Source: Planctomycetia bacterium (GTDB lineage Bacteria; Planctomycetota; Planctomycetia; Pirellulales; UBA1268). Taken from it: DNA of 64,000 nucleotides. Location of the stretch: positions 89,451-153,450 of the forward strand of contig JAPLNR010000053.1 in assembly GCA_026401035.1 (NCBI GenBank), written 5' to 3'. Shown in pieces: positions 3,044 to 64,000 of this stretch; position 1 is the first letter of the stretch, and the number at the start of each line of letters is the position of its first letter. Made by a program: the position numbers and the translations under genes. The notes below the pieces were generated by a model. That model had not been told where the DNA came from. It did not search any database and saw only the letters and a program-made list of their open reading frames with translations.

Positions 3044-3096
3044 TACCGGAGGAGGGACTTGAACCCGCACGCCCTTGCGGGTAACGGATTGTGAGT
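3044..3096 (-). repeat. orphan copy of the 3' half of tRNA-Leu (att-like direct repeat of 5258..5310)
   Basis: 50 of 53 nt are identical to the anticodon-loop-to-discriminator part of the intact tRNA at 5258..5340. There is no matching 5' half (D-arm or acceptor 5' strand), so it cannot fold as a tRNA. Confidence 0.85.
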
Positions 3097-3245
3097 GCGA
3101 ATAGAACCCACAGTCAAGTCGCGCTCGTATCGCGATTGTGCAAATTCCTCGGGAAGGGCGCGTGTGGCTCGGCGCGTGATTCCTGCGCCAAAACGCCTGC
3201 GCCTAACACTTTGCCTAACAGTTTCGGGCCCCACGGGAACCGCCG

Positions 3246-5257: not shown

Positions 5258-5340
5258 TACCGGAGGAGGGACTTGAACCCACACGCCCTTGCGGGCAACG
5301 GATTTTGAGTCCGTCGCGTCTGCCATTTCGCCACTCCGGC
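5258..5340 (-). tRNA. tRNA-Leu (anticodon CAA), type II with long variable arm
   Basis: The reverse complement reads GCCGGAG TG GCGAAATGGCAGACGC G ACGGA CTCAAAA TCCGT TGCCCGCAAGGGCG .GTGGG TTCAAGT CCCTC CTCCGGT A. This gives a 7-bp acceptor (G1-U72), anticodon loop CU-CAA-AA, a variable stem-loop GCCC/GGGC, a GTTCAAG T-loop and discriminator A. One U-U mismatch occurs in the T stem. Confidence 0.85.
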
Positions 5341-6802: not shown

Positions 6803-7681
6803 ATGTCACTCACTGATGCCTATAGCAACGGTCGGTTCGGCCTGTCGTTTGAACTGTTTCCGCCCAAGACGCCTGAATCGGCTGCGCTGATGTGGCGGAC
6901 GGTCGACGACCTGATGGCCTTCGAGCCGGCCATGATCACCTGCACCTACGGCGCCGGCGGCTCCACCCGCGGCACCACGCTCGAGGTTCTCAGGGGCGTG
7001 CGGGAGCGGCACAGCCTGCCGGTGGCCAGCCACCTCACCTGCGTGGGCAGTTCCGTCGACGAACTCCGCGACTATCTGCAGGAGGCCATTACCCTGGGAG
7101 TGGCTGCGATCGTGGCCCTCCGCGGCGATCCTCCCAAGGGGGAAACCGAGTTTCGGCAGGCGGCGGGCGGCCTGCGTTATGCATCCGATCTCGTCGCGCT
7201 CATCCGCAGCGAGTTTCCCGCGCTGGGCATCCTCGTCGCCGGCTATCCGGAGACGCATCAGGAGGCGGTGAGCCCCGACGCCGATCTCGAAAACCTGAAA
7301 CGCAAGTGCGATGCCGGCGGCGACGTCGTCGTCACGCAGCTCTTCTACGAAAATGCCGACTTCTTCCGGTTTCGCGACCGCTGCACGGCGCTCGGCATCC
7401 GGCAGCCGATCGTGCCGGGCGTGATGCCCGTGACCAATTACGCACAGATCCGCCGTATCGCCACGCTCTGCAGGGCCAAGCTGCCCGACGCGTTCACGCA
7501 GGCCTTCGAAGCCGCCGGCGACGACGAGGCCGCCCAGTTCGAGGCGGGCGTCGACTTCGCCACCCGGCAGGTGCGGGAACTGCTCGACGCCGGCGTACCG
7601 GGCATCCATTTCTACGTGCTCAACAAGTCGCCGGCGACCGTGCGGGTGCTCGAGCAGGTGGATCTGCAAGGGACGCGCTGA
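6803..7681 (+). CDS. metF: methylenetetrahydrofolate reductase
   Basis: FSFELFPPKT, CTYGAGGSTRGTT, LRGDPP, GYPE.H and VTQLFYE blocks; 292 aa. Confidence 0.9.
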   Translation: MSLTDAYSNGRFGLSFELFPPKTPESAALMWRTVDDLMAFEPAMITCTYGAGGSTRGTTLEVLRGVRERHSLPVASHLTCVGSSVDELRDYLQEAITLGVAAIVALRGDPPKGETEFRQAAGGLRYASDLVALIRSEFPALGILVAGYPETHQEAVSPDADLENLKRKCDAGGDVVVTQLFYENADFFRFRDRCTALGIRQPIVPGVMPVTNYAQIRRIATLCRAKLPDAFTQAFEAAGDDEAAQFEAGVDFATRQVRELLDAGVPGIHFYVLNKSPATVRVLEQVDLQGTR

Positions 7682-7691
7682 GGGCAAGGCC

Positions 7692-7715
7692 GGCGACTCC
7701 CGTTGCCGAGTCGCC
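7692..7715 (+). terminator. hairpin immediately after metF (possible terminator; no U-tract)
   Basis: GGCGACTC-ccgttgcc-GAGTCGCC, a perfect 8-bp stem starting 11 nt after the metF stop. Its 3' arm runs into the palindromic element at 7712. Confidence 0.3.
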
Positions 7716-7837
7716 GGGATCGGCGGAAGCTCGACGAGCATTGGAGATTTCGCTCGGTCGAGCCAGCGCCGCCGCAACATGCCGGTGCGAAATATCCACG
7801 CGAGAAGACTTCTGCCGATCCCGGCGACCAATGCGGG
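7712..7837 (+). repeat. ~125-nt imperfect-palindrome intergenic element, copy A
   Basis: Outer stem 7712-7729 pairs with 7809-7826 (18 bp, one G-U). Inner stem 7743-7753 pairs with 7787-7797 (10 of 11). The conserved tail is ACCAATGCGGG. Homologous copies at 18438, 51990, 12442, 12551 and 44277. Confidence 0.85.
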
Positions 7838-7853
7838 CTATTCGCACGGAGCG

Positions 7854-8390
7854 CTACCGCGGCGGCAGATCGTCATCCATGCTACTGATGTAGCTCCGCA
7901 GCCGTTCGAGCTCGTCGCTGACGTGCCGTAGCTTGAGCATGTTTTCCACCCGCTTCACGAGCTCCACCTTGTTGACCGGCTTGGAGAGGAAGTCGTCGGT
8001 GCCGGCCTCGACGGCCCGCTCGATGTCGCCGAGTTCACCGAGGGCCGTCACCATCAGGATCATGATCGGGCTCGTGGATGGATCGCTCTTGAGCCGCTGG
8101 CAGACCTCAAAGCCGGAGAGCTTCGGCATCATCACGTCGAGCAGGATGACGTCGGGTCGGAAGGCCGCCACCTTGTCGAGCGTGTCACGACCGTCGATGG
8201 CCGTGGCAATTTCACAGTCGATCTCGGCGAGATAGACCTCGAGGAGTTCGCGGTTGGGCTCGTTGTCGTCGGCGATGAGCACGCGGCTCTTGCGGGCGGC
8301 CACTGCTGCGGTGGGCTTGGTCTGGGGCTGGGCGGGGGGCGATTTGGGCATCGGGTCCTCGGTCGCGGCGGCGGCGTTACGGGATTTCAA
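7854..8390 (-). CDS. single-domain response regulator (CheY-like receiver)
   Basis: VLIADDNEPNRELL...PDVILLDVMMPKLSGFEVC..LK......PIMILMVTA...D..RA.EAGTDDFLSKP. An alternative start is Met14 at 8351. Confidence 0.85.
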   Translation of the reverse strand: MKSRNAAAATEDPMPKSPPAQPQTKPTAAVAARKSRVLIADDNEPNRELLEVYLAEIDCEIATAIDGRDTLDKVAAFRPDVILLDVMMPKLSGFEVCQRLKSDPSTSPIMILMVTALGELGDIERAVEAGTDDFLSKPVNKVELVKRVENMLKLRHVSDELERLRSYISSMDDDLPPR

Positions 8391-12418: not shown

Positions 12419-12430
12419 CCGCAACTGCCG

Positions 12431-12647
12431 TCGGAGGCGAAGGGATCGGCGGAAGCTCGACGAGCGTCGGCATATCTTTGCCGCGCGGAGGAGACTTCTG
12501 CCGTCCCAGGCCGGTTTGAGCGCGAGCGGTACGCCACCATCGGAGGCGAAGGGATCGGCGGAAGGTCGACGAGCGTCGGCATATCCTTGCCGCGCGGAGG
12601 AGACTTCTGCCGTCCCGAGCCGGTTTGAGCGCGAGCGGTACGCCACC
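12431..12647 (+). repeat. tandem duplication (2 x 109 nt), each unit holding a short form of the palindromic element
   Basis: 12431-12539 versus 12540-12647 differ at 4 positions. The short-form cores are at 12442-12507 and 12551-12616 (GGGATCGGCGGAAG...CTTCTGCCGTCCC). Confidence 0.9.
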
Positions 12648-17128: not shown

Positions 17129-18373
17129 ATGACCAATCAACCTTCTTCCACGGCCGACGACCCGGCACCGGCCAGCGGCCTGCCCACCGCGACGGTGATC
17201 CTCAAGCCCAAGCGGGCCCGCCCGTTCTTCGGCCGGCATCCGTGGGTGCTCGATTCGGCGGTGCTTCGCGTCGAGGGCGACCCGACCGACGGCGCCGTGG
17301 TCGACCTCGCCACGCACGATGGCAACTTCGTGGCCCGCGGCCTCTGGAATGCCGCGAGCCGGCTCCGCGTGCGGCTCTATGCCTTCGACGCCGCCACCAA
17401 ACTCGACGGCTCCTTCTGGCAGGCCCGCATCGAATCGGCCATCAAACTCCGCCAGGTGCTCGGCCTCGACGACCGCGCCGGGGCGGCCCGCCTGGTCAAC
17501 AGCGAGGGGGACAACCTCTCCGGGCTGATCGTCGACCGCTATGGCGACTACCTCGCCGTGCAGGTGACGGCGCTGGCGATGGCGCACCGTCTCGATGCGA
17601 TCTGCGACACGCTCGAAGCGGTCGTCAAGCCGGCCGGCATCCTCCTGCGCGGCGCGGAACGGGGGCTGGCAAAACTCGAGGGGCTGCACCTCGCCGACCG
17701 GCTCGTTCGCGGCACCGCGCCCGCCGGGGCGATCTTCGTGCAGGAGCACGGCCTGAAGTTCGGCGTGGATCTCACGGAAGGGCAGAAGACCGGCTACTAC
17801 CTCGACCAGCGCGACAACCGGCAGGCTGCGGCGCGATATGCCAGGGGCCGCCGCGTGCTCGACCTGTTCTGCTACTCGGGCGGATTCAGCGTGGCCTGCG
17901 CCCAGAGCGGCGGGGCCGCGAGCGTGCTGGCCGTCGATTCGAGCGCGAAGGCGACGACGCTGGCCAAGGCGAATGCCGATCTCAACGGCGCGGCCAACGT
18001 CACGGTCGAGACAGCCGACGCCTTCGAGAAGCTCGACGCCCTCGCGGCAGCCGGCGAGCGGTTCGGCATGGTGATCCTCGACCCGCCGAAATTCGCCCGC
18101 AGCCGGGCCTCCCTGGACGACGCCCTGCGGGCCTACCACCGGATCAACCGCGTGGCCGTCGGGCTACTCGAGCCGGGCGGCATTCTCGTGACCTGCTCCT
18201 GCTCAGGCTCCGTGTCGCGGGACGATTTCCTGCAGATGCTCGCGGGCGTGGCCCAGCGGAGCGGCCGGCCCCTCCAGCTCCTCGAATGCCGCGGCGCGGC
18301 GCCAGACCATCCGGTGAGCGCCAGCTGCCTCGAGGGGGAATACCTCAAGTGCGTGATCGCCCGCGTGGCCTGA
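17129..18373 (+). CDS. rlmI: class I SAM-dependent rRNA (cytosine-C5) methyltransferase, RlmI-like (PUA + MTase)
   Basis: HPWVLDSAV, GLWNAASRLRVRLY, GQKTGYYLDQRDNR, VLDLFCYSGGFSV and ILDPPKFA blocks. Confidence 0.8.
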   Translation: MTNQPSSTADDPAPASGLPTATVILKPKRARPFFGRHPWVLDSAVLRVEGDPTDGAVVDLATHDGNFVARGLWNAASRLRVRLYAFDAATKLDGSFWQARIESAIKLRQVLGLDDRAGAARLVNSEGDNLSGLIVDRYGDYLAVQVTALAMAHRLDAICDTLEAVVKPAGILLRGAERGLAKLEGLHLADRLVRGTAPAGAIFVQEHGLKFGVDLTEGQKTGYYLDQRDNRQAAARYARGRRVLDLFCYSGGFSVACAQSGGAASVLAVDSSAKATTLAKANADLNGAANVTVETADAFEKLDALAAAGERFGMVILDPPKFARSRASLDDALRAYHRINRVAVGLLEPGGILVTCSCSGSVSRDDFLQMLAGVAQRSGRPLQLLECRGAAPDHPVSASCLEGEYLKCVIARVA

Positions 18374-18437
18374 GTTTTTGAACGGCGAAAGCCTGCGCGG
18401 AACGGGATCTGCGGGGCGTGGCTGCCGATGCTGAGGA

Positions 18438-18561
18438 GCCGGGTCGGCGGAAGCTCGCGGAGCATTGGAGTTTTCGCCGGGTTGAGGTCGGCGCTCCTGC
18501 ACGGGCTCGGTGCGAAAAATCCACGCGACAAGACTTCTGCCGACCCGGCGACCAATGCGGG
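18438..18561 (+). repeat. ~125-nt imperfect-palindrome intergenic element, copy C
   Basis: Outer stem 18438-18453 pairs with 18534-18549 (16 bp, one G-U). Inner stem 18467-18477 pairs with 18512-18522. The tail is GACCAATGCGGG. Confidence 0.85.
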
Positions 18562-18585
18562 TTGTTTGTGCAGCGCGGCGAGCGG

Positions 18586-18633
18586 GGCAGGCTTGAGCCT
18601 GTCGCTGTGATTGACAGGCTGAAGCCTGTCCTA
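18586..18633 (-). repeat. two adjacent REP-like hairpins; the second carries the TAG stop of the gene at 18631..18906
   Basis: GGCAGGC-ttga-GCCTGTC lies at 18586-18603 and GACAGGC-tgaa-GCCTGTC at 18613-18630, followed by CTA (18631-18633). On the minus strand this reads TAGGACAGGCTTCAGCCTGTC. Confidence 0.85.
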
Positions 18634-18906
18634 CAGTTTCCGCAGGCGCGTGTATTCGTCCATGGTGACGGTCGTGAGTTCGCCGTCGTCGCGGGACAGG
18701 ATCAGGACGTCGCTGTAGACCTTGTCGTCGGGGTTGCGGCGGAAGTGCAGCCCATGGCGGCGGCGCTCGCGGCAGAGCACCTTGCCCACCGTCGTCGTGC
18801 TCCACTTCGCGCTCGAGCCGACGGTGACGCCGTGGATCACCTCCACCCGGTCGCCCGGCTGGAGCTGTTCGTAGAGGCTGCGGGCCTGGTATTCCTCGGG
18901 GGTCAT
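18631..18906 (-). CDS. hypothetical small protein downstream of ilvC
   Basis: ORF 18631..18930 trimmed to Met9 ([23 protein letters not shown]...). This start overlaps the ilvC stop by 1 nt. No recognisable family. Confidence 0.45.
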   Translation of the reverse strand: MTPEEYQARSLYEQLQPGDRVEVIHGVTVGSSAKWSTTTVGKVLCRERRRHGLHFRRNPDDKVYSDVLILSRDDGELTTVTMDEYTRLRKL

Positions 18907-19910
18907 CAGACTTCCTTCGATTCGATCCACTTCATCATCTTGCGGAGGCCGCGGCCGGTCTCCGTGAGCTTGTGCTCCCGCTCGCGGCGGCGCGTGCTCT
19001 TGAACATTGCCGCTCCGCCACGGTTCTCGAGGATCCAGTCGCGGGCAAACTCGCCCGAGCGGATCTCCTCGAGGATCTTCTTCATTTCCTTGCGGGTCTC
19101 TTCGGTGATGATCCGCTTGCCCCGCGTGTAGTCACCGTATTCGGCCGTGTTCGACACGCTGTACCGCATGTATTCCAGGCCGCCCTGATACAGGAGGTCG
19201 ACGATGAGCTTCATCTCGTGGAGGCATTCGAAATAGGCCATCTCCGGCTGGTAGCCTGCCTCGACGAGCGTGTCGAAGCCGGCCTTGATGAGCTCGGAAA
19301 CACCGCCGCAGAGCACGGCCTGCTCACCGAAGAGGTCGGTTTCCGTCTCTTCCGCGATCGTTGTCTCGATCACACCGCCCCGCGTGCCGCCGATGCCCTT
19401 GGCATAGGCGAGGCCGAGCTTCTTGGTCTCGGGCGAGGCGCCGGGGCCGAGGGCGATCAGGCAGGGCACGCCGCCCCCCTTCACGTATTCGCTCCGCACC
19501 AGGTGCCCGGGGCCCTTGGGGGCCACCAGCATGATGTCGTGGCCGGCCGGCGGCTCGACCTGGCCGAAGTGGAAGTTGAAGCCGTGGCTGGCCATCAGCA
19601 CGGCGCCCTTCTTCAGGTTCGGCTTGATCGCCGCTTTGTAGACGTCGCCCTGCAGTTCGTCCGGCAGCAGGATGTTGACAAGGTCGGCCTGCTTGACGGC
19701 CTCCTCGACGCTCACGGGAGCGAAGCCATGGCTCTTGGCGAGTTCATAGTTGGGGCCGCCCGGCCGCTGCGCCACGACCACCTTTAGCCCGCTGTCGCGG
19801 AGGTTCTGCGCCTGGGCGTGGCCCTGGCTGCCATAGCCGATGATGGCGATGGTCTTTCCCTCGAGGGCCTTCAGGTCGGCATCGGCGTCGTAATAGATCG
19901 TTGCAGGCAC
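18906..19910 (-). CDS. ilvC: ketol-acid reductoisomerase (class I)
   Basis: GTG start at 19910 ([36 protein letters not shown]). The upstream part of ORF 18906..20027 is Pro-rich non-homologous sequence. 334 aa. Confidence 0.92.
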
Positions 19911-28943: not shown

Positions 28944-30028
28944 GCAGATGCAGGGCTGGGTGGGCAGTGGTGCTGTGGGTGTTCACGATCTCCACCGCCG
29001 CTCTGGCGGCCGACACTGCGGCCACGCCACCGCGACTGCGGGTGGCCGTCACCCCGATCGCCTCGGCGCTGGAGTGGACCGGCGAGCAGCCCACCGGCGT
29101 GATGGTCGACATCTGGGAGAATCTCGCCGGCCGTCTCGGCGTGACGACCGACTTCGTGAAGGCGGCGACGTTCTCCAAACTGCTTGCGACGCTCCCGGCC
29201 GGAGAAGCCGATGTCGCCCTCGGGCCGATAGCGATCACCGAGGAGCGGGAACGGCGGGTGGATCTCACCCACCCGATTTTTCACTCCGGCCTGCGGATCG
29301 CCGTCCGCCAGCGGAACAACTCAGGATTTCTCGCGGCGCTCCGCTCACTGCTCTCCTGGGACCTGCTCGGATTGCTGGGGCTCGTCATCGGACTGGCGCT
29401 GCTGTCGGGCCATCTTCTCTGGTGGTTCGAGCACAAGGGCAACGACAGGTCGTTTCCACCGCAGTATCCCCGCGGCGTCGGGGAGGCGACCTGGTGGATC
29501 GCTTCGACGATCGTCACCGGTGGCTGCGACGACAAGCACGTTGACAGCATGCTGGGCCGTGGGATCGCCCTCATCTGGATGGTCGGCGGCATCGGGCTGA
29601 TCGCCGCGTTCACCAGCGTGCTCACCGCCACGATGACGGCGGAGCGGGTGACCGGCACGATCCAGGCGGTCCGTGATCTCGCCGGCCGCACGGTCGGCTG
29701 TCAGATGGAGGCCGTCTCGATCGAGTCGGTGAGGCAGCGGGGTGGAATCGTGCAGGAATTTTCCACGCTCACCGAGGCGCTCGATGCGCTTGACCTCGGC
29801 ATGGTGGAGGCCGTGGTGGGGGAAAATCAACAGCTGATGTATCTCACCAACCAGTCCCGGCGGGGAACCATCCGACTCGTCGGCGCCATGTTCGACTCAT
29901 TCGACTACGGGCTCGGCCTCCCCGCCGGCAACGCCCTCCGCGAGGACCTCAACACGGCGATCCTCCGCATGCGGGAAGACGGCACGCTCAACCGCATCAA
30001 GGAGGAGTGGCTCGGCAGCCACGAGTAG
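28940..30028 (+). CDS. GluR0-like ligand-gated channel: periplasmic binding-protein fold split by a 2-TM pore module
   Basis: ATGA overlap with the upstream gene. The order is a signal peptide, SBP lobe 1, TM (LLGLLGLVIGLALLSGHLLWWF), pore loop EATWWIASTIVTGGCDD, TM (GIALIWMVGGIGLIAAFTSVLTA), then SBP lobe 2 ending ...LNRIKEEWLG. 362 aa. Confidence 0.7.
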   Translation: MSRCRAGWAVVLWVFTISTAALAADTAATPPRLRVAVTPIASALEWTGEQPTGVMVDIWENLAGRLGVTTDFVKAATFSKLLATLPAGEADVALGPIAITEERERRVDLTHPIFHSGLRIAVRQRNNSGFLAALRSLLSWDLLGLLGLVIGLALLSGHLLWWFEHKGNDRSFPPQYPRGVGEATWWIASTIVTGGCDDKHVDSMLGRGIALIWMVGGIGLIAAFTSVLTATMTAERVTGTIQAVRDLAGRTVGCQMEAVSIESVRQRGGIVQEFSTLTEALDALDLGMVEAVVGENQQLMYLTNQSRRGTIRLVGAMFDSFDYGLGLPAGNALREDLNTAILRMREDGTLNRIKEEWLGSHE

Positions 30029-30046
30029 GACAGGCTTCAGCCTGTC
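30026..30046 (+). repeat. REP-like hairpin TAGGACAGGCTTCAGCCTGTC (the TAG is the stop of the channel gene)
   Basis: 7-bp stem and 4-nt loop. It fills the 22-nt gap between convergent genes (stops at 30028 and 30051). Confidence 0.85.
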
Positions 30047-36995: not shown

Positions 36996-37022
36996 TCACG
37001 CCTGGCTCAACGCGCACAATCC

Positions 37023-37324
37023 GGCTTCGGGCGACCCGTACCCCGTCGCCGGACGTTCGCTACGGGCATCCTGCCCTTCGCTCTCTCGATGCTGACCGCG
37101 CTCCGCCATCCTGGCTGCGCTTGTCAGCAACGCCGGCTCCCGGGGTACGGGTCGCCCAAAGCCTCCCTCAACTGGTGAACTGCAGAAAGCGGGTAGGCTC
37201 GGGGCTGCACATGCCCTCTCGCGGGCTATGGGAGCGAGCGCAGGCAGGATGCCGAAGCGAGCGGACATGCAGTGAGCGAAGGACAGGATGTCCGCAGCGA
37301 ACGTCCGCCGAGAGGGCATGCTGC
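37023..37324. repeat. cluster of interleaved inverted and direct repeats between ppdK and the DASS gene
   Basis: IR1 is 37023-37045 versus 37141-37163 (22 of 23). IR2 is 37051-37083 versus 37274-37306 (30 of 33). IR3 is 37207-37224 versus 37305-37324. A weaker direct copy of the IR2 motif lies at about 37233-37265. Confidence 0.8.
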
Positions 37325-39141: not shown

Positions 39142-39296
39142 CGTACCAGACTCCAGGGCAGGCAGTGACGGGTCACCACGATCCACACGGGGTGTTTCGT
39201 CGCGGAGCGGGCCGGCAGTTGAACGACGGCGCAAACAGGTGGAGCCATGCCAATTGTGCGGATCATGCTGCCGTTCTGCCGGCCGCATTGGGTAAG

Positions 39297-40538
39297 ATGC
39301 TGCCCATGAAACGGACAAGCATCGCACTCGACTATGGTGGCACGGATCCGCTCACGCTCGACGTGGAGGTGTCGGCCCTCGTGGCCGATTGCCTCGGGCC
39401 GCAGGGCGCCACCGCGACAGAGGCCACGAAGCTCGTGGGCGGGGCGGTCGCCAATCCACCGTCCGGTCCGCCGCTGGCCGCCCATGTGGTGCCGGGGGAC
39501 CGCGTGGCGATCGCGTTTGCCGGTGACGTGCCGCAGATGGCCGCCGTGACGGCAGCCGTGGTCGCGCAGATCTCCGCAGCCGGCGTCGCGGCGAACGACA
39601 TCACGCTGCTCCACGCCCCGCCGCTCGAGGCGGTCGCGGGGCCGGCGACGGCCGCAGCACTGCCGGCGGCTCTGGGCGGCCCGGGGAGCGTTCACGAATT
39701 CGATCCCGCCGTCGTGGCCGACACGGCCTACCTCACGGCCGACGAGGATGCGCGGCCGCTCCACCTCGCCCGCACGCTCGTCGATGCCGACGTGGTCGTG
39801 TCGATCGGCGGCTGGGGTTTCGACGCGGCGCTCGGCGGCCGGTCGCTCGACGGAGAACTCTGGCCCACGTTCGCCCGGCAGAGCTGTCGGCAGGATCTCA
39901 TTCGCACGTTGGCGAAGAAGGGCCGCCATGCCCTCGCGGGCTGGCGGTCGAACATGCAGGAGATCACCTGGCAGCTCGGCGTCTGCGCGAGCCTGCGGCT
40001 GGTGGCAGGCCGCGGCGATTCGCTCGCGGCCGCATGCTTCGGCCTGCCGGAGACCGCCGCGCGGCAGGCCCGCGAACAGGCCGCGGCCTGGAGCCCGGAG
40101 GTGAGAGCGCCGGCGGCGCTCACGATCTGCTCGCTCGCCAGCCCGCAGCGTGGATTTGCCGCGATCACGCGGGCCGTGGCGGCGGCCGCCCGTGTGACCC
40201 AGCCCGGCGGAACGGTCTGCATCGCCAGCACGGTCACCGCACCCCCGGGCACGATCTTCACCCGCTGGCGGCAGGGCGCGCCACTCGAGCCGCTCATCCA
40301 CGAGGCGATCGGCACGGGCGATTCGGCTCTCATCGCCGACGCGGTCGAGACGCGGCTCTTCGCCCGGGCGCTCGACGATCGCCGACTCGTGCTGCTCTCG
40401 GCCCTCGACGAGTCGACGGTCGAGGACCTCGAATTCGGCTTCGCCGACACCCCCGCCGTCGTGGAACGACTCGCCCGGCGGGCCGAAAGCCTGATCGTGC
40501 TCCGTGAAGCCGACCGGATGTTTCCCCGGCTCTCGTAG
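39297..40538 (+). CDS. LarA-like (lactate racemase N-terminal domain/DUF2088-type) protein
   Basis: ORF 39057..40538 trimmed to ATG 39297. The layout VVPGDRVAIAF..., ADVVVSIGGWGFDAALGGRS and PGGTVCIAS parallels the LarA blocks (..IVIISSDHTRP.., ADLLISEGFIESHFFAGFSGGRK, EGGTIIMVA). Key residues differ. Confidence 0.55.
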   Translation: MLPMKRTSIALDYGGTDPLTLDVEVSALVADCLGPQGATATEATKLVGGAVANPPSGPPLAAHVVPGDRVAIAFAGDVPQMAAVTAAVVAQISAAGVAANDITLLHAPPLEAVAGPATAAALPAALGGPGSVHEFDPAVVADTAYLTADEDARPLHLARTLVDADVVVSIGGWGFDAALGGRSLDGELWPTFARQSCRQDLIRTLAKKGRHALAGWRSNMQEITWQLGVCASLRLVAGRGDSLAAACFGLPETAARQAREQAAAWSPEVRAPAALTICSLASPQRGFAAITRAVAAAARVTQPGGTVCIASTVTAPPGTIFTRWRQGAPLEPLIHEAIGTGDSALIADAVETRLFARALDDRRLVLLSALDESTVEDLEFGFADTPAVVERLARRAESLIVLREADRMFPRLS

Positions 40539-40556
40539 GACAGGCTTCAGCCTGTC
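40536..40556 (+). repeat. REP-like hairpin TAGGACAGGCTTCAGCCTGTC (the TAG is the stop of the LarA-like gene)
   Basis: Identical 21-mer to 30026 and 51936. Confidence 0.85.
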
Positions 40557-44130: not shown

Positions 44131-44276
44131 GTCGGTCAGTATCGCAGGGCCGCAGACGGGCAGAAGCCCGTCCCGATCCTGTTCGGCACGGCCCGGGCCA
44201 GGCCCGGAGGGCCGGGTTGAAGCCAGCCACCGGATGTTTCCCGTGAAGCCACCTGCTGGGGAGGCGAGGCCGGAAG

Positions 44277-44318
44277 TGCAGCGCGAAGGAGACTTCTGCC
44301 GCCGGCGACCAATGCGGG
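44277..44318 (+). repeat. right-half fragment of the palindromic element (copy D)
   Basis: TGCAGCGCGAAGGAGACTTCTGCCGCCGGCGACCAATGCGGG matches the right arm and tail of copy E almost exactly. Confidence 0.75.
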
Positions 44319-44344
44319 TGAGCGGCACGGCGGCACAGACGAGG

Positions 44345-51825: not shown

Positions 51826-51935
51826 TCGCGGTTGCGAACCGTCACGGCGCTGGCGAAAAGGGAGGGGACTGGCTCGTGTTCCGCAGGAACAGGTGCCTGT
51901 GCCAATCCTGTTCGGCACGGCGATTGCACCCCGAG

Positions 51936-51956
51936 TAGGACAGGCTTCAGCCTGTC
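51936..51956 (+). repeat. REP-like hairpin TAGGACAGGCTTCAGCCTGTC
   Basis: Third identical plus-strand copy, 110 nt after the kinase stop. Confidence 0.85.
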
Positions 51957-51989
51957 ATCCCCTGTCCTGCCCTCGCCTGTTCCGCCGTG

Positions 51990-52112
51990 CCGCATTGGTC
52001 GCCGGCGGCAGAAGTCTCCTTCGCGCTGCATTTTCTCCGTTGACGACCTACGGAGCTGCCGACCCCAGAAGGTCGAAAATGCAGACGCTCGTCGAGCTTC
52101 AGCCGACCGACT
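51990..52112 (-). repeat. ~125-nt imperfect-palindrome intergenic element, copy E (inverted orientation)
   Basis: The reverse complement reads GGTCGGCTGAAGCTCGACGAGC...CTGCATTTTC...GAAAATGCAG...GGAGACTTCTGCCGCCGGCGACCAATGCGG. The inner stem is a perfect 10 bp. Confidence 0.8.
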
Positions 52113-52145
52113 CCTCACAGGTGACTTCAAGCAAATCCGCGGCGA

Positions 52146-59905: not shown

Positions 59906-60334
59906 TCATAACTTGAAGCGGGCGATCGCCTGCGTCGCCCGTGGGCGGGACGACGGGTCGGCTTGCACAGACTGCTCGATGGCCTCCCGAGCCTCGGTCT
60001 TGCGTCCGAGGTGCGCCAGCGACACCCCGCGGTTGAACAACGCGATGGCGTGCCTCGGATCCACGGCCAGGGCTCGATCGCAGTCAGCGAGGGCCTCGGC
60101 GGTTCGGCCGAGATCGAGCAGCACGCAGGCGCGGTTCGCCAGGGCTTCGACGTGACGCGGCGACAATGTCACGGCCTGCGTATATGCATCGAGGGATTCG
60201 CGGACCTTCCCCTGATCCGCCCGGCTCATGGCGACGTTGAACCAGAGATCGGCGTCGCGCACACCCGCAAGGACCGCCCCGAAGACCGGCGAAGCGATGG
60301 AACGCAATTGGTTTCGCGGCGGAACGTCAGGCAT
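59906..60334 (-). CDS. TPR-repeat protein
   Basis: ORF 59906..60709 trimmed to ATG 60334. It has three TPR-like units (W.N.A......G...E.L.AY..A..L.P....AL.NRA). Confidence 0.65.
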
Positions 60335-60402
60335 GCCATGAGCCGTTCTCGGGGACGATGAAAAATTGTCGACGGCCACCGCACCCGCGTCAATCTTCTC
60401 CC

Positions 60403-60639
60403 TCGGCCTTCGTGAAACCGTTCCTTGCCGCCGTTGTCGTCGGTGACGGTCGTGATCCTCACGGCATGACGGCCGATATCGACCCCCATGATGTCGCGAA
60501 GAGAGGCGCGCTCGTAGCGGCCTTCGGCGTCGGTGATCGCTCGGCTCGTGCGGCCAGCACCTTCGGGGGTGAAGAGCACAAGTGCCTCCGGCCTCTGCAC
60601 GGCCGGCAGTACGGGGTTCGTCGTGGCCTTCTCCTGCAA
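60403..60639 (-). pseudogene. 5'-truncated remnant of a small carboxypeptidase-regulatory-like (prealbumin-fold) protein
   Basis: The frame of ORF 60226..60666 reads ...VLFTPEGAGRTSRAITDAEGRYERASLRDIMGVDIGRHAVRITTV. This resembles the C-terminal half of the short lipoproteins common in planctomycetes. There is no signal peptide, and the upstream part is replaced by the IS91 remnant. Confidence 0.35.
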
Positions 60640-60906
60640 GGGCCGGGGCGTGTGTCCGTCGTGCAACGGACGCCACCTGGCACAGACGGCGGCGCATCTC
60701 GTCGATCACGTCATCCCGCCGGTGCCGCCCTCACCAAGATCTTCCTTGACGAGATCGAGCGGTCGCTGCTCACGGCCTCGGGTGTCACCGCTGCTGCCGA
60801 CACGCCGAGTGCTTCCCGCCCACAGCTCGGCGGCATCTCCTTCCTGCACCGCTTCGGCTCGGCGCTCAACCATCATGTGCACCTTCACGCCTGCGTGACC
60901 GACGGC
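60629..60906 (+). mobile_element. IS91-family transposase remnant (two short fragments in different frames)
   Basis: Frame of ORF 60533: FSCKGRGVCPSCNGRHLAQTAAHLVDHVIPPVP, the Zn-binding N-terminal block. Frame of ORF 60358: ALTKIFLDEIERSLL...GGISFLHRFGSALNHHVHLHACVTDG, the IS91 block before the HUH region. The intervening and downstream transposase sequence is missing. Confidence 0.6.
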
Positions 60907-61333
60907 GACTCAGGGGCCATTGACGGCACCCAGTTTCGCGATCCAGCCGGCCAGCGCGTCGACCGGGCCACGATACCCACCCCCGTCGTCGAGCAGCTGG
61001 AGAACGCGATTTACGAGTTCCTGCCCTCTGGCTTCGAGATCAACGACGGCGGCCAAGGGACTCTCACGCTGGATGTTCCCACAGGCAGGATCACGCTCGC
61101 GCACCAAGAGAACTACACCGAGAGCCGTGACAGCACCCGGGAGTTCGAGCTGTAATGGCGCACCCGTATCCCCACGCTGTCAGTTCGGCACGCTCACGCT
61201 TTCGGCGAGCAGCACGTTCTTGAGGACTTGGGGCAGGATCCCGACGGTCCACGACTGGCTGGGACGTATTCAGCCCGAGAGTTGGATGCTGGGGCGGGGA
61301 CATGCGTTGAACGAATAGGCCGCGTGGGTGAGG

Positions 61334-62338
61334 TCAGAAATCGACTTTCTCAACCTTCCCATTTTTTTCCAGATACAGCTCGTAGGCGTGCTCTCGCAGA
61401 CTGAACACCTCCTCGATCACATAGCTATCCGCGGAGTGCACGGCAGACTCCACCCACGCCCTCTTCTCCGCGGGCAGATCAGCCAATGTGATCACGTTCT
61501 CGATCTCGAAGCCCTCATGCCAGACGAATTCGAACGCTAACCCCTTGTTTGCCCACTTCAGCTTTGCTTCATAGCCGTTGTCAATCGGCAGCCAGTCAAT
61601 GTCAGCTCTGTTGTGCGATGCGATGGTTGCGGTCGCCGATGACAGCATGCCCAGACCAGAGAGCACCATTGCGGAATAACCGATTCGCCTGAAAGCCAGA
61701 ACGCTGATTTTGCCGACGACCCACTTTGCGGACCACGCGGCCAGAACCGCTGCCATCGCGACAACTGCCCCCACAGACATGGCCTTGTAGGTCATCAGTC
61801 CAAACAAGGTGTAGAGAACCAGCTTGATGAGATGGAGCAGGATTTCGTTGGTTGCCCGGGTTGCGATGATTTCCTCTTTGGACATGCCGCAGGTGAGATA
61901 AAACCTATTGAAGAGCAGGCCCACCGCCCCCGCCAAGCCCGAGACAAACCCCACCGAGAAGCCGAGGAAAGCCAGCCGATACTTCGACGGCCGAGCGGTT
62001 TCGTGCTTCTCGCCGTTCCTGACCAGCTGGGCGATATTGCTGACCAGAAACAGGCCCATCAGCAGCTCCAAGTACATCGGATTGCAGTATTGGAGCAGCC
62101 ACGCCCCCAGCCACACTGCTGGTATCGACGCTGGGACAAAGTTTCGCACGATGTCCCAGCGGATGCTCTTACGGAAGGCCACCAGCCGTGACAACGAGTT
62201 GGTTGCAGTGCCTATCGACAGCGCCGCAGGAACCGAGCTGATGGGCAGAACTCGGCTGAGGATCGGGATCAGAATCAATCCCGCTCCGCCCCCGCAGATC
62301 GTACTGAGAAGGAACGCGGCGACAGCGGTAACAAACAA
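61334..62338 (-). CDS. TauE/SafE-family membrane protein fused to a ~90-aa C-terminal soluble (PepSY-like?) domain
   Basis: The N-terminal 245 aa are a TauE-type polytopic region (GGGAGLILIPIL...GLAGAVGLLFNRF). The tail is ...LADLPAEKRAWVESAVHSADSYVIEEVFSLREHAYELYLEKNGKVEKVDF. It lies in the lower-GC region. Confidence 0.65.
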   Translation of the reverse strand: MFVTAVAAFLLSTICGGGAGLILIPILSRVLPISSVPAALSIGTATNSLSRLVAFRKSIRWDIVRNFVPASIPAVWLGAWLLQYCNPMYLELLMGLFLVSNIAQLVRNGEKHETARPSKYRLAFLGFSVGFVSGLAGAVGLLFNRFYLTCGMSKEEIIATRATNEILLHLIKLVLYTLFGLMTYKAMSVGAVVAMAAVLAAWSAKWVVGKISVLAFRRIGYSAMVLSGLGMLSSATATIASHNRADIDWLPIDNGYEAKLKWANKGLAFEFVWHEGFEIENVITLADLPAEKRAWVESAVHSADSYVIEEVFSLREHAYELYLEKNGKVEKVDF

Positions 62339-63208
62339 GACGATCTGAATGGCCCTGACCCTCTGAGTGGCCGGCTACAAGCGGGAATCGCTCGTATTCT
62401 AGAGGGTCTGCTCCCGCCCCGATTCCCTGATTCCTGACGAATGCTCAAGGCTGGTATGTGATACGGCGCTTGCGGCAATGTGGGCACGTTCCAACTATCC
62501 AGATCGCAAGGGTATGCAGCCCAAAGCGTCATTGAGCCGGGCGACGAAGAATCCTACAAGCAGGTCGTCGTGATTCTTGCCGCCTGCCTGAGCGACTGCG
62601 ATCCTCGCCCACGCCAGAAAGCAGGAAGCAAGTGGTCGATTCCAGTGCCCAAGTGAAAGGAACGTGCTATGAAATCTCCTGAACAGGTCACGGACGATGT
62701 TATGGGATCCAGCGTCGCGACCCAAGTCGTAGATGTAATACGCCATGCAGTGTTTGCTGGCGCGGTGGCTCTGCCAATGGCTCTCTTGGCTGCCGCAGAC
62801 GGTTTCGAAAGCGACTCCGACTTCGCTTCGGCGGGGGAGTTGTGGCTTGATGTCCAGAACAGAATGAAGGTGGCAACAGAAAGAAATCTGTAGAAGCCGA
62901 GGCTGACGCCCGCGCTTTCATAACCCGGTCACGCTGTCAGGGGTGGCACACATCGCCAGTGCTCGCCTGATTTGGCAGCAGAAGGGACTCAGGATGAGAA
63001 CCCACTGACCGGCTAGCCAGAAGCAGCAGTGACCAGAAAACCAGAGAGTGAGAGTGAAGGTGCCCAATTGGCCGTAGCGCCGACCTTAACTCGCACAACA
63101 CCCCTGAAAAAAAGGAGATTCGTGCTGTGCGTTAAGGAGTTAAGGAGATTTTGCTTCCGACCCCACTCGGCGCGAATGCACGTGGCCCCTTCTCACTCGC
63201 CGGCAGGC

Positions 63209-63988
63209 TTACTGACGACCAAATGGCCACCACGCCAACCGCCATGTGCTGGTGTCGTCTTTGTCAGTGAGCTCAGCCGGTTCCTCGTACGAGACCTGAG
63301 CCTCGGGCAATACCTCGATCTCATCCCCGTCGACCACAACCTCGGCTACGGGGGCAGATACCAGCCGGGCTTGGACACGGCCGACAGCATGCCCGGCCAC
63401 CACGGCACCGGCATAGATGGGTAATGCGACCGGTGCGACAAAGTCACCGACCGCACCACCTACATACGTGCCATAGGCCGGAAATAAGATCCGGTAGCTC
63501 TCGCGTTCCAGTTCCGACTCGTCGTTTTCTTGGGCATAGGCGATCGCGTCCCCGGTGGCGATTGCTTCTGGCCAGAGGCTTACAACGGGCAGTGCGGCAC
63601 AGAGTGCATACGTGCCCGGAAGCTTTCGCCGGGTGAAGTCTTTCGCGTGCCCTCCTTCGTGCAGGGCTATAGCTGACACGTCGCTATAGAGGTGGATCGT
63701 GCCCGTAAACGGGTTGTAGTGGTCGCCGCCGATGAGACGCCCCGGCAGGATCGCTTCGCCGGCCACAGACAAAGCGCCAAGCGTGTAGCGATAGCCCCAG
63801 CCGACGGTCTTGTTGGCCCGTAGCCTCCGCCAGTCTTCCAGCGGGGCGTATTGGTTGATCCGGACCTTCACGTGGTCCAAATCGTTGTCGTCGAGATACT
63901 GGCGAATGGCCTCTTCAGTGTCCGCAGAGACGTTGTGATTCTCCACACGTCGGTCCCAGAGAATCACTTTCGAGGGGATGCCAAACAC
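63209..63988 (-). CDS. hypothetical protein with an HExxH-type motif (ALHEGGHAKD)
   Basis: 259-aa ORF in the lower-GC region. The frame may stay open upstream to the window edge, so the N-terminus is uncertain. No family recognised. Confidence 0.5.
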   Translation of the reverse strand: MFGIPSKVILWDRRVENHNVSADTEEAIRQYLDDNDLDHVKVRINQYAPLEDWRRLRANKTVGWGYRYTLGALSVAGEAILPGRLIGGDHYNPFTGTIHLYSDVSAIALHEGGHAKDFTRRKLPGTYALCAALPVVSLWPEAIATGDAIAYAQENDESELERESYRILFPAYGTYVGGAVGDFVAPVALPIYAGAVVAGHAVGRVQARLVSAPVAEVVVDGDEIEVLPEAQVSYEEPAELTDKDDTSTWRLAWWPFGRQ

Positions 63989-64000
63989 CCAGCCAACCCC

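Follow-up and report, generated by a model that had tools for sequence, protein, structure and literature searches.

REPINs are REP doublets that form hairpins and are mobilised by RAYT tyrosine transposases; their inverted ends are conserved around a variable spacer, and they often show compensatory changes (Bertels & Rainey 2011, PMC3116915). In the case of GTAG REPs, Di Nocera et al. (2013, PMC3733652) reported that the TAG of the tag often supplies the stop codon of a gene. They also described GTAG REPs and numerous tyrosine-transposase genes in Planctomycetes, R. baltica among them.

The window, by which we mean the whole 64-kb stretch of planctomycete DNA that was analysed, contains several hairpins of about 125 nt. 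We find that these hairpins belong to a family of small mobile palindromic repeats that had not been named before and whose members occupy intergenic positions in a clade of freshwater Pirellulales (Planctomycetota). Selfish or junk repeats of this kind are ordinary in bacteria, and the family does not open a new category of genetic element; an RNA gene is not demonstrated. The best explanation, which we consider likely, is that the copies are non-autonomous interspersed palindromic DNA repeats, REPIN/MITE-like and specific to this clade of freshwater Pirellulales.

The original prediction, made from the sequence of the window, described six copies (A, B1, B2, C, D and E), and every detail of their coordinates and sequences that we checked is correct. 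A covariance model built from 31 copies of the family and run over the 64-kb window without filters matches exactly these six (Table 1), and the next match has an E-value of 0.19. The scores are 117–146 bits for sense copies and 19–29 bits for antisense copies. The 20-mer of the left arm has five matches in the window with at most one mismatch, where 0.09 would be expected, and the right arm has four, against 0.32 expected. Copies A, C, B1 and B2 fold far below shuffled sequences (z from -3.4 to -5.4), while the fold of E is weaker (z -1.9).

Table 1. Positions, strands and settings of the family members and REP1 sequences of the window.
Feature	Position	Strand	Covariance model (bits)	Fold	Parts and setting
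Copy A, type-1 core	7696-7843	+	117.5	-74.4 kcal/mol, z -5.4	Degenerate head; hairpin 7710-7828; tail GGCGACCAATGCGG 7823-7836; fills the convergent spacer between metF 6803-7681 (+) and a response-regulator gene 7854-8390 (-)
Copy B1, short form	12424-12526	+	58.1	z -4.3	First unit of a tandem duplication; 3' of panC, 5' of lgt
Copy B2, second tandem unit	12531-12635	+	53.9	z -4.6	
Copy C, type-1 core	18421-18567	+	126.7		Full head CGATGCTGAGGAG 18426-18438; outer stem 18438-18453/18534-18549; tail 18547-18560; 3' of RlmI-like methyltransferase gene 17129-18373 (+)
REP1 doublet 3' of copy C	18583-18634	+			Degenerate inverted REP1 and canonical GACAGGCTGAAGCCTGTCCTAC 18613-18634
Solo REP1	30025-30046	-			Fills a 22-nt convergent spacer; TAG 30026-30028 is the stop of gene 28967-30028
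Solo REP1	40535-40556	-			TAG 40536-40538 is the stop of gene 39288-40538
Copy D, type-2 variant	44274-44338	+	26.1		5'-truncated: right arm and tail; antisense, between rsmG and a signal-peptidase gene
Spacer and REP1 after the tail of copy E	51935-51982 (REP1 51935-51956)	-			Composite unit together with E
Copy E, type-2 core	51983-52128	-	146.1		Between a Ser/Thr kinase gene (+) and a PHO4 phosphate-transporter gene (-)

The structural description of these copies also stands for the most part. The inner stems lie at 7743-7753/7787-7797 in A and at 18467-18477/18512-18522 in C, the outer stem of C has 16 bp as read from the sequence, the pair a7747-t7793 of A is replaced by t18471-a18518 in C, and the outer stems of A and C differ by the paired GATC/G-TC indel. 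The conserved tail is as described, and its 14-mer is found four times in the window without mismatch. The outer stem of A is real and contains one G-U pair, but the 18 bp ascribed to it are too few, since 7710-7729 pairs with 7809-7828 over 20 bp. The unit as a whole is also larger than described: it starts earlier, with a head, and a spacer and a REP often follow.

B1 keeps the outer stem of the family, TCGGCGGAAG/CTTCTGCCG, and has a short core, with a head (GGAGGCGAAGGG) and a tail that differ from those of the family. B1 and B2 form a tandem duplication of 109 nt (12428-12536/12537-12645, 95% identity). Copy D is 85% identical to E (blastn), with an exact right arm, and contains an insertion, GAGGCCGGAAG, that is also present in the family member of another locus, L018 (compared with L018:2836-3017). 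The core of E consists of an inner stem, CTGCATTTTC/GAAAATGCAG, and two small apical hairpins. The neighbours of the window copies are housekeeping genes, namely metF, the response regulator, panC, lgt, the rRNA methyltransferase, rsmG, the signal peptidase, the kinase and PHO4.

The full unit consists, in this order, of an unpaired conserved head, CGATGCUGAGGAG (CGATGCTGAGGAG), a long imperfect hairpin and an unpaired conserved tail, GGCGACCAAUGCGG (GGCGACCAATGCGG). In many copies the tail is followed, after a semi-conserved spacer of about 35 nt, by a single GTAG-type REP whose orientation does not vary; the hairpin measures about 100–125 nt and the whole composite about 190–225 nt. The base of the hairpin, TCGGCKGAAGCTCG.../...GACTTCTGCCG, is common to all copies, and the interior occurs in at least four interchangeable core types: type 1 in A and C, type 2 in E, D and most others, a short type 3 and the short B type. 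The head and tail of the short forms are unlike those of the long copies. The head GATGCTGAGGAG and the tail CCAATGCGG are not complementary to one another, so the ends are asymmetric, and extended folds do not support a hairpin that reaches into the conserved flanks on either side. It had been proposed that CCAATGC in the tail could form a pseudoknot with GCATTGG inside the element. This pairing is available to the type-1 core only and is not conserved across core types: all of the 22 type-2 copies are devoid of the GCATTGG partner, while 21 of them keep the tail.

The attached REP, which we call REP1 (GACAGGCTGAAGCCTGTCCTAC), reads on the opposite strand as GTAG followed by a 7-bp stem-loop, which makes it a GTAG-type REP; the motif GTAG+GACAGGC-loop-GCCTGTC occurs 79 times in 272 kb. 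Within 110 nt on the 3' side of the tail, REP1 is found 21 times in the same orientation and never inverted, and only 21 of the 54 hairpin copies have a REP1 on this side. When copies at unrelated sites of one MAG are compared, the similarity ends just before GATG and just after CTAC, and the spacer is conserved. The window contains four identical 22-nt REP1s. Three of them provide, with the TAG of their tag, the stop codon of the gene that they abut: the two solo REP1s and that of copy C, where the CTA of CTAC (18631-18633) is the stop codon of a convergent gene (18631-18930, - strand). Over the 272 kb, the TAG stop of a neighbouring gene is supplied by 21 of 47 distinct REP1 copies.

Other short sequences are found near family members. 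The response-regulator gene beside copy A also ends at CTAC (CTA 7854-7856). A third short repeat, CGTGCCGAACAGGATYGG, lies beside copies D and E (44173-44190 and 51902-51919, both on the - strand), that is, two matches in the window for 0.01 expected, and it adjoins family members in L025, L029 and L032 too. Tandem arrays made from half a REP1 occur downstream of family members, with about four repeats of CAATGACAGG and at least six of GGGACACTGACAGGCT (L025, ~985-1075, and L035, ~2140-2260).

A pattern scan with one genome per species found the family solely in four lake MAGs of Pirellulales/Planctomycetia (14 stretches), and a metagenome scan added 21 lake contigs that carry it. The 272 kb of DNA that was analysed contains 54 hairpins, of which 43 are distinct. 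The scan of viral contigs and plasmids returned zero copies of the family.

The copies are insertions, gained and lost among close relatives and even from strain to strain, and they decay into fragments and tandem duplicates. In the orthologous loci L006, L009, L011 and L019 (88–91% identity), two sites are filled in some and element-free in others. The spacer between metF and the response-regulator gene, which contains copy A, is 172–174 nt long with the element in the window species and its variants (94–100% MetF identity); in the sister lineages L056, L066 and L069 (86–88% MetF) it measures 31, 41 and 32 nt and has no match to the covariance model. The 31-nt spacer consists of REP1 only, and both stop codons are positionally conserved in the element-free spacers. 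A conspecific strain (L039) has an identical RlmI-like protein, and its 6.2-kb locus differs from the window by about 1% outside the element site; at the site of copy C, it carries a different, divergent member of the family on the opposite strand. We note that the head of this member (L039:3746-4022, equivalent to window 18374-18630) pairs with an internal complement, not with the usual arms, and that the member is flanked by direct REP1-like repeats.

The presence or absence of the element between lineages and the inverted, different member in a nearly identical strain favour the mobile repeat, which was one of the two alternatives of the original prediction. Fragments, tandem duplication and assembly breaks point in the same direction; five short-read contigs, for instance, end within the left arm of A, B1 or C. 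The pairs of filled and unfilled sites gave no insertion or excision junction that is exact to the nucleotide, as either the whole spacers differ or several repeats are involved. A search for unfilled sites of B, C and D by exact-protein look-up returned mostly short contigs that end in the repeat, or nothing.

The other alternative is a functional structured RNA. Such an RNA could stabilise transcripts from their 3' UTR, separate convergent genes as a terminator or insulator, or be an sRNA; selection would then act at the RNA level and dispersal would be secondary. The strong folds and the excess of covariation speak for it. The statement that the fold rather than the sequence is conserved holds, with 86.9% of cells paired. 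We counted 11 pairs changed on both sides, against 5.4 ± 1.1 in shuffles, of which none out of 500 reached 11, and 3 in slid controls. Since the register of pairing differs between the type-1 and type-2 cores, the inner stem escaped RNAalifold when used by itself, and covariation was accordingly counted on a manual structure. In addition, linker indels on opposite arms are perfectly correlated (GA/TC, AA/TT, none/none, G/AC), and private double compensations are found in single copies (L005, L022, L025, L033, L034). In 42 of 45 copies the fold of the top strand is the more stable of the two, with a mean difference of 6 kcal/mol and partly through G-U pairs, and this counts for an RNA as well. 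A perfect stem of 20 bp would moreover be a substrate of RNase III if it were transcribed.

However, an excess of compensatory change does not work as a criterion for RNA in the way that had been suggested, since hairpin DNA repeats such as REPINs show it as well, so that it does not prove by itself that there is an RNA; covariation is equally expected of either (PMC3116915). Part of the "compensation" is probably mechanical, judging from the alleles of copy A. The population contains three alleles, with clustered differences in the head and the apical loop. Compared with L045 and L016, the window allele shows clustered changes (GAGGAG to GAGTCG, plus others) by which the left arm becomes the exact complement of the right one, and this would be the product expected of hairpin-templated (quasipalindrome) correction. 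The comparison of window 7690-7780 with L016 and L045-L055 shows copy A to be a hot spot of mutation in the species: the window and L016 have 17 differences over 1284 nt, and 9 of these fall into a segment of about 100 nt that includes the head of A, its left half and the immediate 5' flank.

The position of the copies can also be read in favour of an RNA, as most of them lie just past stop codons and between convergent genes. Based on gene calls that rely on codon usage, convergent spacers make up 21% of the spacers in this DNA but hold 27 of 44 copies (about 16 of 27 independent sites, ~60%). The apparent rule that the element shares the strand of its upstream gene is uninformative in this respect, because it is automatic in convergent spacers. 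In co-directional (tandem) spacers, which alone are informative, about 4–5 copies are sense and 5 are antisense, which argues against an RNA; a sense bias with respect to the upstream gene, which was strong with crude gene calls, vanished in tandem spacers after better calls. Copies accumulate where insertion does little harm, in convergent spacers and next to clusters of REPs. In 9 of 34 copies, against ~6% by chance, the head has the CTAC of a REP at most 26 nt on its 5' side, a hint that insertion occurs beside the ends of REPs. Frequently the 5' flank reads YCCC or a REP places its CTAC 0–20 nt upstream; no invariant target was found.

The absence of the element from orthologous sites of sister lineages and its exchange or inversion between strains show that it is dispensable, and this, together with the wholesale exchange of core types, also weighs against selection for an RNA. 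No U-tract follows the hairpin. The proposal of an intrinsic terminator was rejected: the sequence after the hairpin is GGCGACCAAUGCGG, and a scan of 18300-18700 gave one weak antisense site, which is inside the element. When Rfam was searched at gathering thresholds with the window, tRNA-Leu was the sole match and the hairpin element was unmatched, and a search at E≤1 with five loci that carry the element left it unmatched as well. The idea of a 3' stabiliser, terminator or sRNA finds no positive support, considering the balance of sense and antisense copies, the absence of an Rfam match and that of a U-tract. We consider it distinctly unlikely that the family is a functional RNA, and an RNA would be at most a side effect of the repeat.

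The copies could also be classical MITEs, that is, internally deleted insertion sequences of a DDE transposase whose terminal inverted repeats would be the arms of the hairpin. This hypothesis would account for the long inverted arms, the variable interior, the multiple copies per genome, the fragments and the insertion polymorphism. However, the search for target-site duplications, which the original prediction had advised, gave no more than chance for both candidate 3' boundaries: direct repeats next to the element reach 0–2 nt at most, as in a random control, with one 4-nt match that also occurs in the control. It is for this reason, and because the outermost termini are not complementary, that the family does not qualify as classical MITEs. 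Two further observations go against this origin: arms split around a gene are seen neither in the window nor at other loci, and the link to the GTAG REP has a fixed orientation. We regard a classical MITE as very unlikely.

Integron attC sites, too, are imperfect palindromes; they measure 60–140 nt, lie at the 3' ends of genes and have conserved ends around a variable centre. This resemblance to another type of recombination site, or the fact that the frame starting at the ATG of the head is free of stops in 21 of 28 copies, as expected of a small protein-coding gene, makes neither of these two readings tenable, and both are effectively refuted: the flanking genes are housekeeping genes 5–30 kb apart and not cassettes, RYYYAAC/GTTRRRY boxes are absent as read from the sequence, both orientations occur, and open frames are present but none is conserved across copies, since the element length modulo 3 is spread (11/10/7) and paired 2-nt indels of the arms shift the frame between subfamilies.

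The hairpin repeat probably moves as single-stranded DNA. A host-encoded enzyme acting on single-stranded DNA (HUH/Y1, RAYT-like) may copy the unit by recognising the folded top strand, the head and the tail, in the way that has been proposed for REPINs. We propose a RAYT-like mobilisation on the basis of the REPIN-like layout, the asymmetric ends without target-site duplication, the strand-specific fold, and the GTAG REPs and transposases of planctomycetes. Neither the examination of genes flanked by inverted REPs nor tblastn, with RAYT and IS200 queries that were only approximate, revealed a transposase of any kind in the 272 kb, and we therefore give this step somewhat less than an even chance. 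The weak RAYT/IS200 matches obtained by tblastn were ClpS and noise. The orientation of the copies is not biased with respect to local GC skew (20 vs 15, a weak test), and the replication-strand signature of the IS200/IS605 type is not seen.

Two processes probably maintain the hairpin itself: selection for mobilisability, and hairpin-templated correction that would copy one arm from the other. Effects on transcripts, such as a block of read-through between convergent genes, would be a by-product. A bolder proposal, which is unlikely to hold in all its parts, is that the composite of about 200 nt (head, untagged hairpin, tail, spacer and single GTAG REP) would be one transposition unit of a RAYT-like single-strand DNA enzyme, intermediate between REP/REPIN and IS200/IS605-type elements, whose palindrome would be kept perfect by self-templated, arm-from-arm correction and not by selection on an RNA.

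The window also contains features that are distinct from the family. Another palindromic repeat, of about 300 nt, is found at 37010-37316, between the gene of a 929-aa protein and the next gene; its 51-nt inverted arms are 37041-37091 and 37266-37316, and it is 82–90% identical to sequences from other Pirellulales MAGs (L003:15-326 and L011:3-242). It may be another mobile repeat or an RNA. One copy of a 56-nt direct repeat (3044-3099 and 5258-5313, 93% identity) is the 3' part of tRNA-Leu(CAA) (5258-5340), and the 2.2 kb in between contain only short, poorly scoring ORFs. The arrangement resembles what a small element that had integrated at the tRNA would leave as an att-site remnant. The G+C content is 0.59–0.62 at 60001-64000, and about 0.66–0.70 elsewhere in the window.

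In the genomes of freshwater Pirellulales, the hairpin units account for contig breaks, variable intergenic lengths and hairpin signals in the assemblies, and it is advisable to mask them before searching for ncRNAs or terminators. The turnover between strains is visible in public lake time-series, which offers a way of watching insertion, inversion and hairpin-correcting mutation in nature. The family is also a well-sampled planctomycete addition to the small set of hairpin repeats that persist in a lineage, such as REPINs.

Like REPINs, the family is made of hairpin units of about 100 nt, with two conserved inverted ends, a less conserved spacer and common compensatory changes; the copies are extragenic and numerous, they form tandem clusters and leave singlet remnants (copy D), and there is no target-site duplication. 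On the contrary, the arms of the family (GAGGAGNCGG..TCGGCKGAAGCTCG and its partner) have neither GTAG nor a REP-like self-palindromic core, the head and tail are unpaired and non-complementary, the cores are discrete and interchangeable, and a single, separate GTAG REP is attached in one orientation. REPINs are linked to a cognate RAYT gene, which the same repeats flank in the genome, whereas none is linked to the hairpin family in the 272 kb. The family does not belong to the REPINs, since the arms of its hairpin are not tagged REPs. GTAG REPs are numerous extragenic stem-loops of 20–40 bp that carry GTAG at one end. The attached REP1 is a typical GTAG REP, with its GTAG, its 7-bp stem and its TAG that often gives the stop of the abutting gene, while the long hairpin is 3–5 times the length of a REP and untagged. 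The combination of a REP and other motifs in a mosaic composite is reminiscent of the BIMEs of E. coli.

The PATEs (palindrome-associated elements) derived from IS200/IS605 are moved as single-stranded DNA and insert 3' of a fixed tetra- or pentanucleotide. They resemble the family in their asymmetric ends with hairpins, the lack of a target-site duplication, a strand-specific fold and a frequent position 3' of a short motif, which is CTAC in the case of the family. They differ in that the halves of our family pair into one long hairpin, not into separate left-end and right-end hairpins, and in that no TnpA was found in the 272 kb and no bias with respect to the replication strand was detected, in a weak test. 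The ERIC (or IRU) sequences of enterobacteria are imperfect palindromes of about 127 bp. These sequences, Correia/NEMIS and other bacterial MITEs resemble the family in size, in being imperfect palindromes, in their intergenic location near gene ends and in their many dispersed copies; the family differs from ERIC and Correia/NEMIS by the absence of any sequence relationship that we could see, the absence of a TA or other target-site duplication, the asymmetry of its termini and the phylum in which it occurs. The closest known kind is the world of REPINs and REPs, with a mosaic organisation similar to that of BIMEs, and in size and shape the family resembles ERIC and bacterial MITEs.
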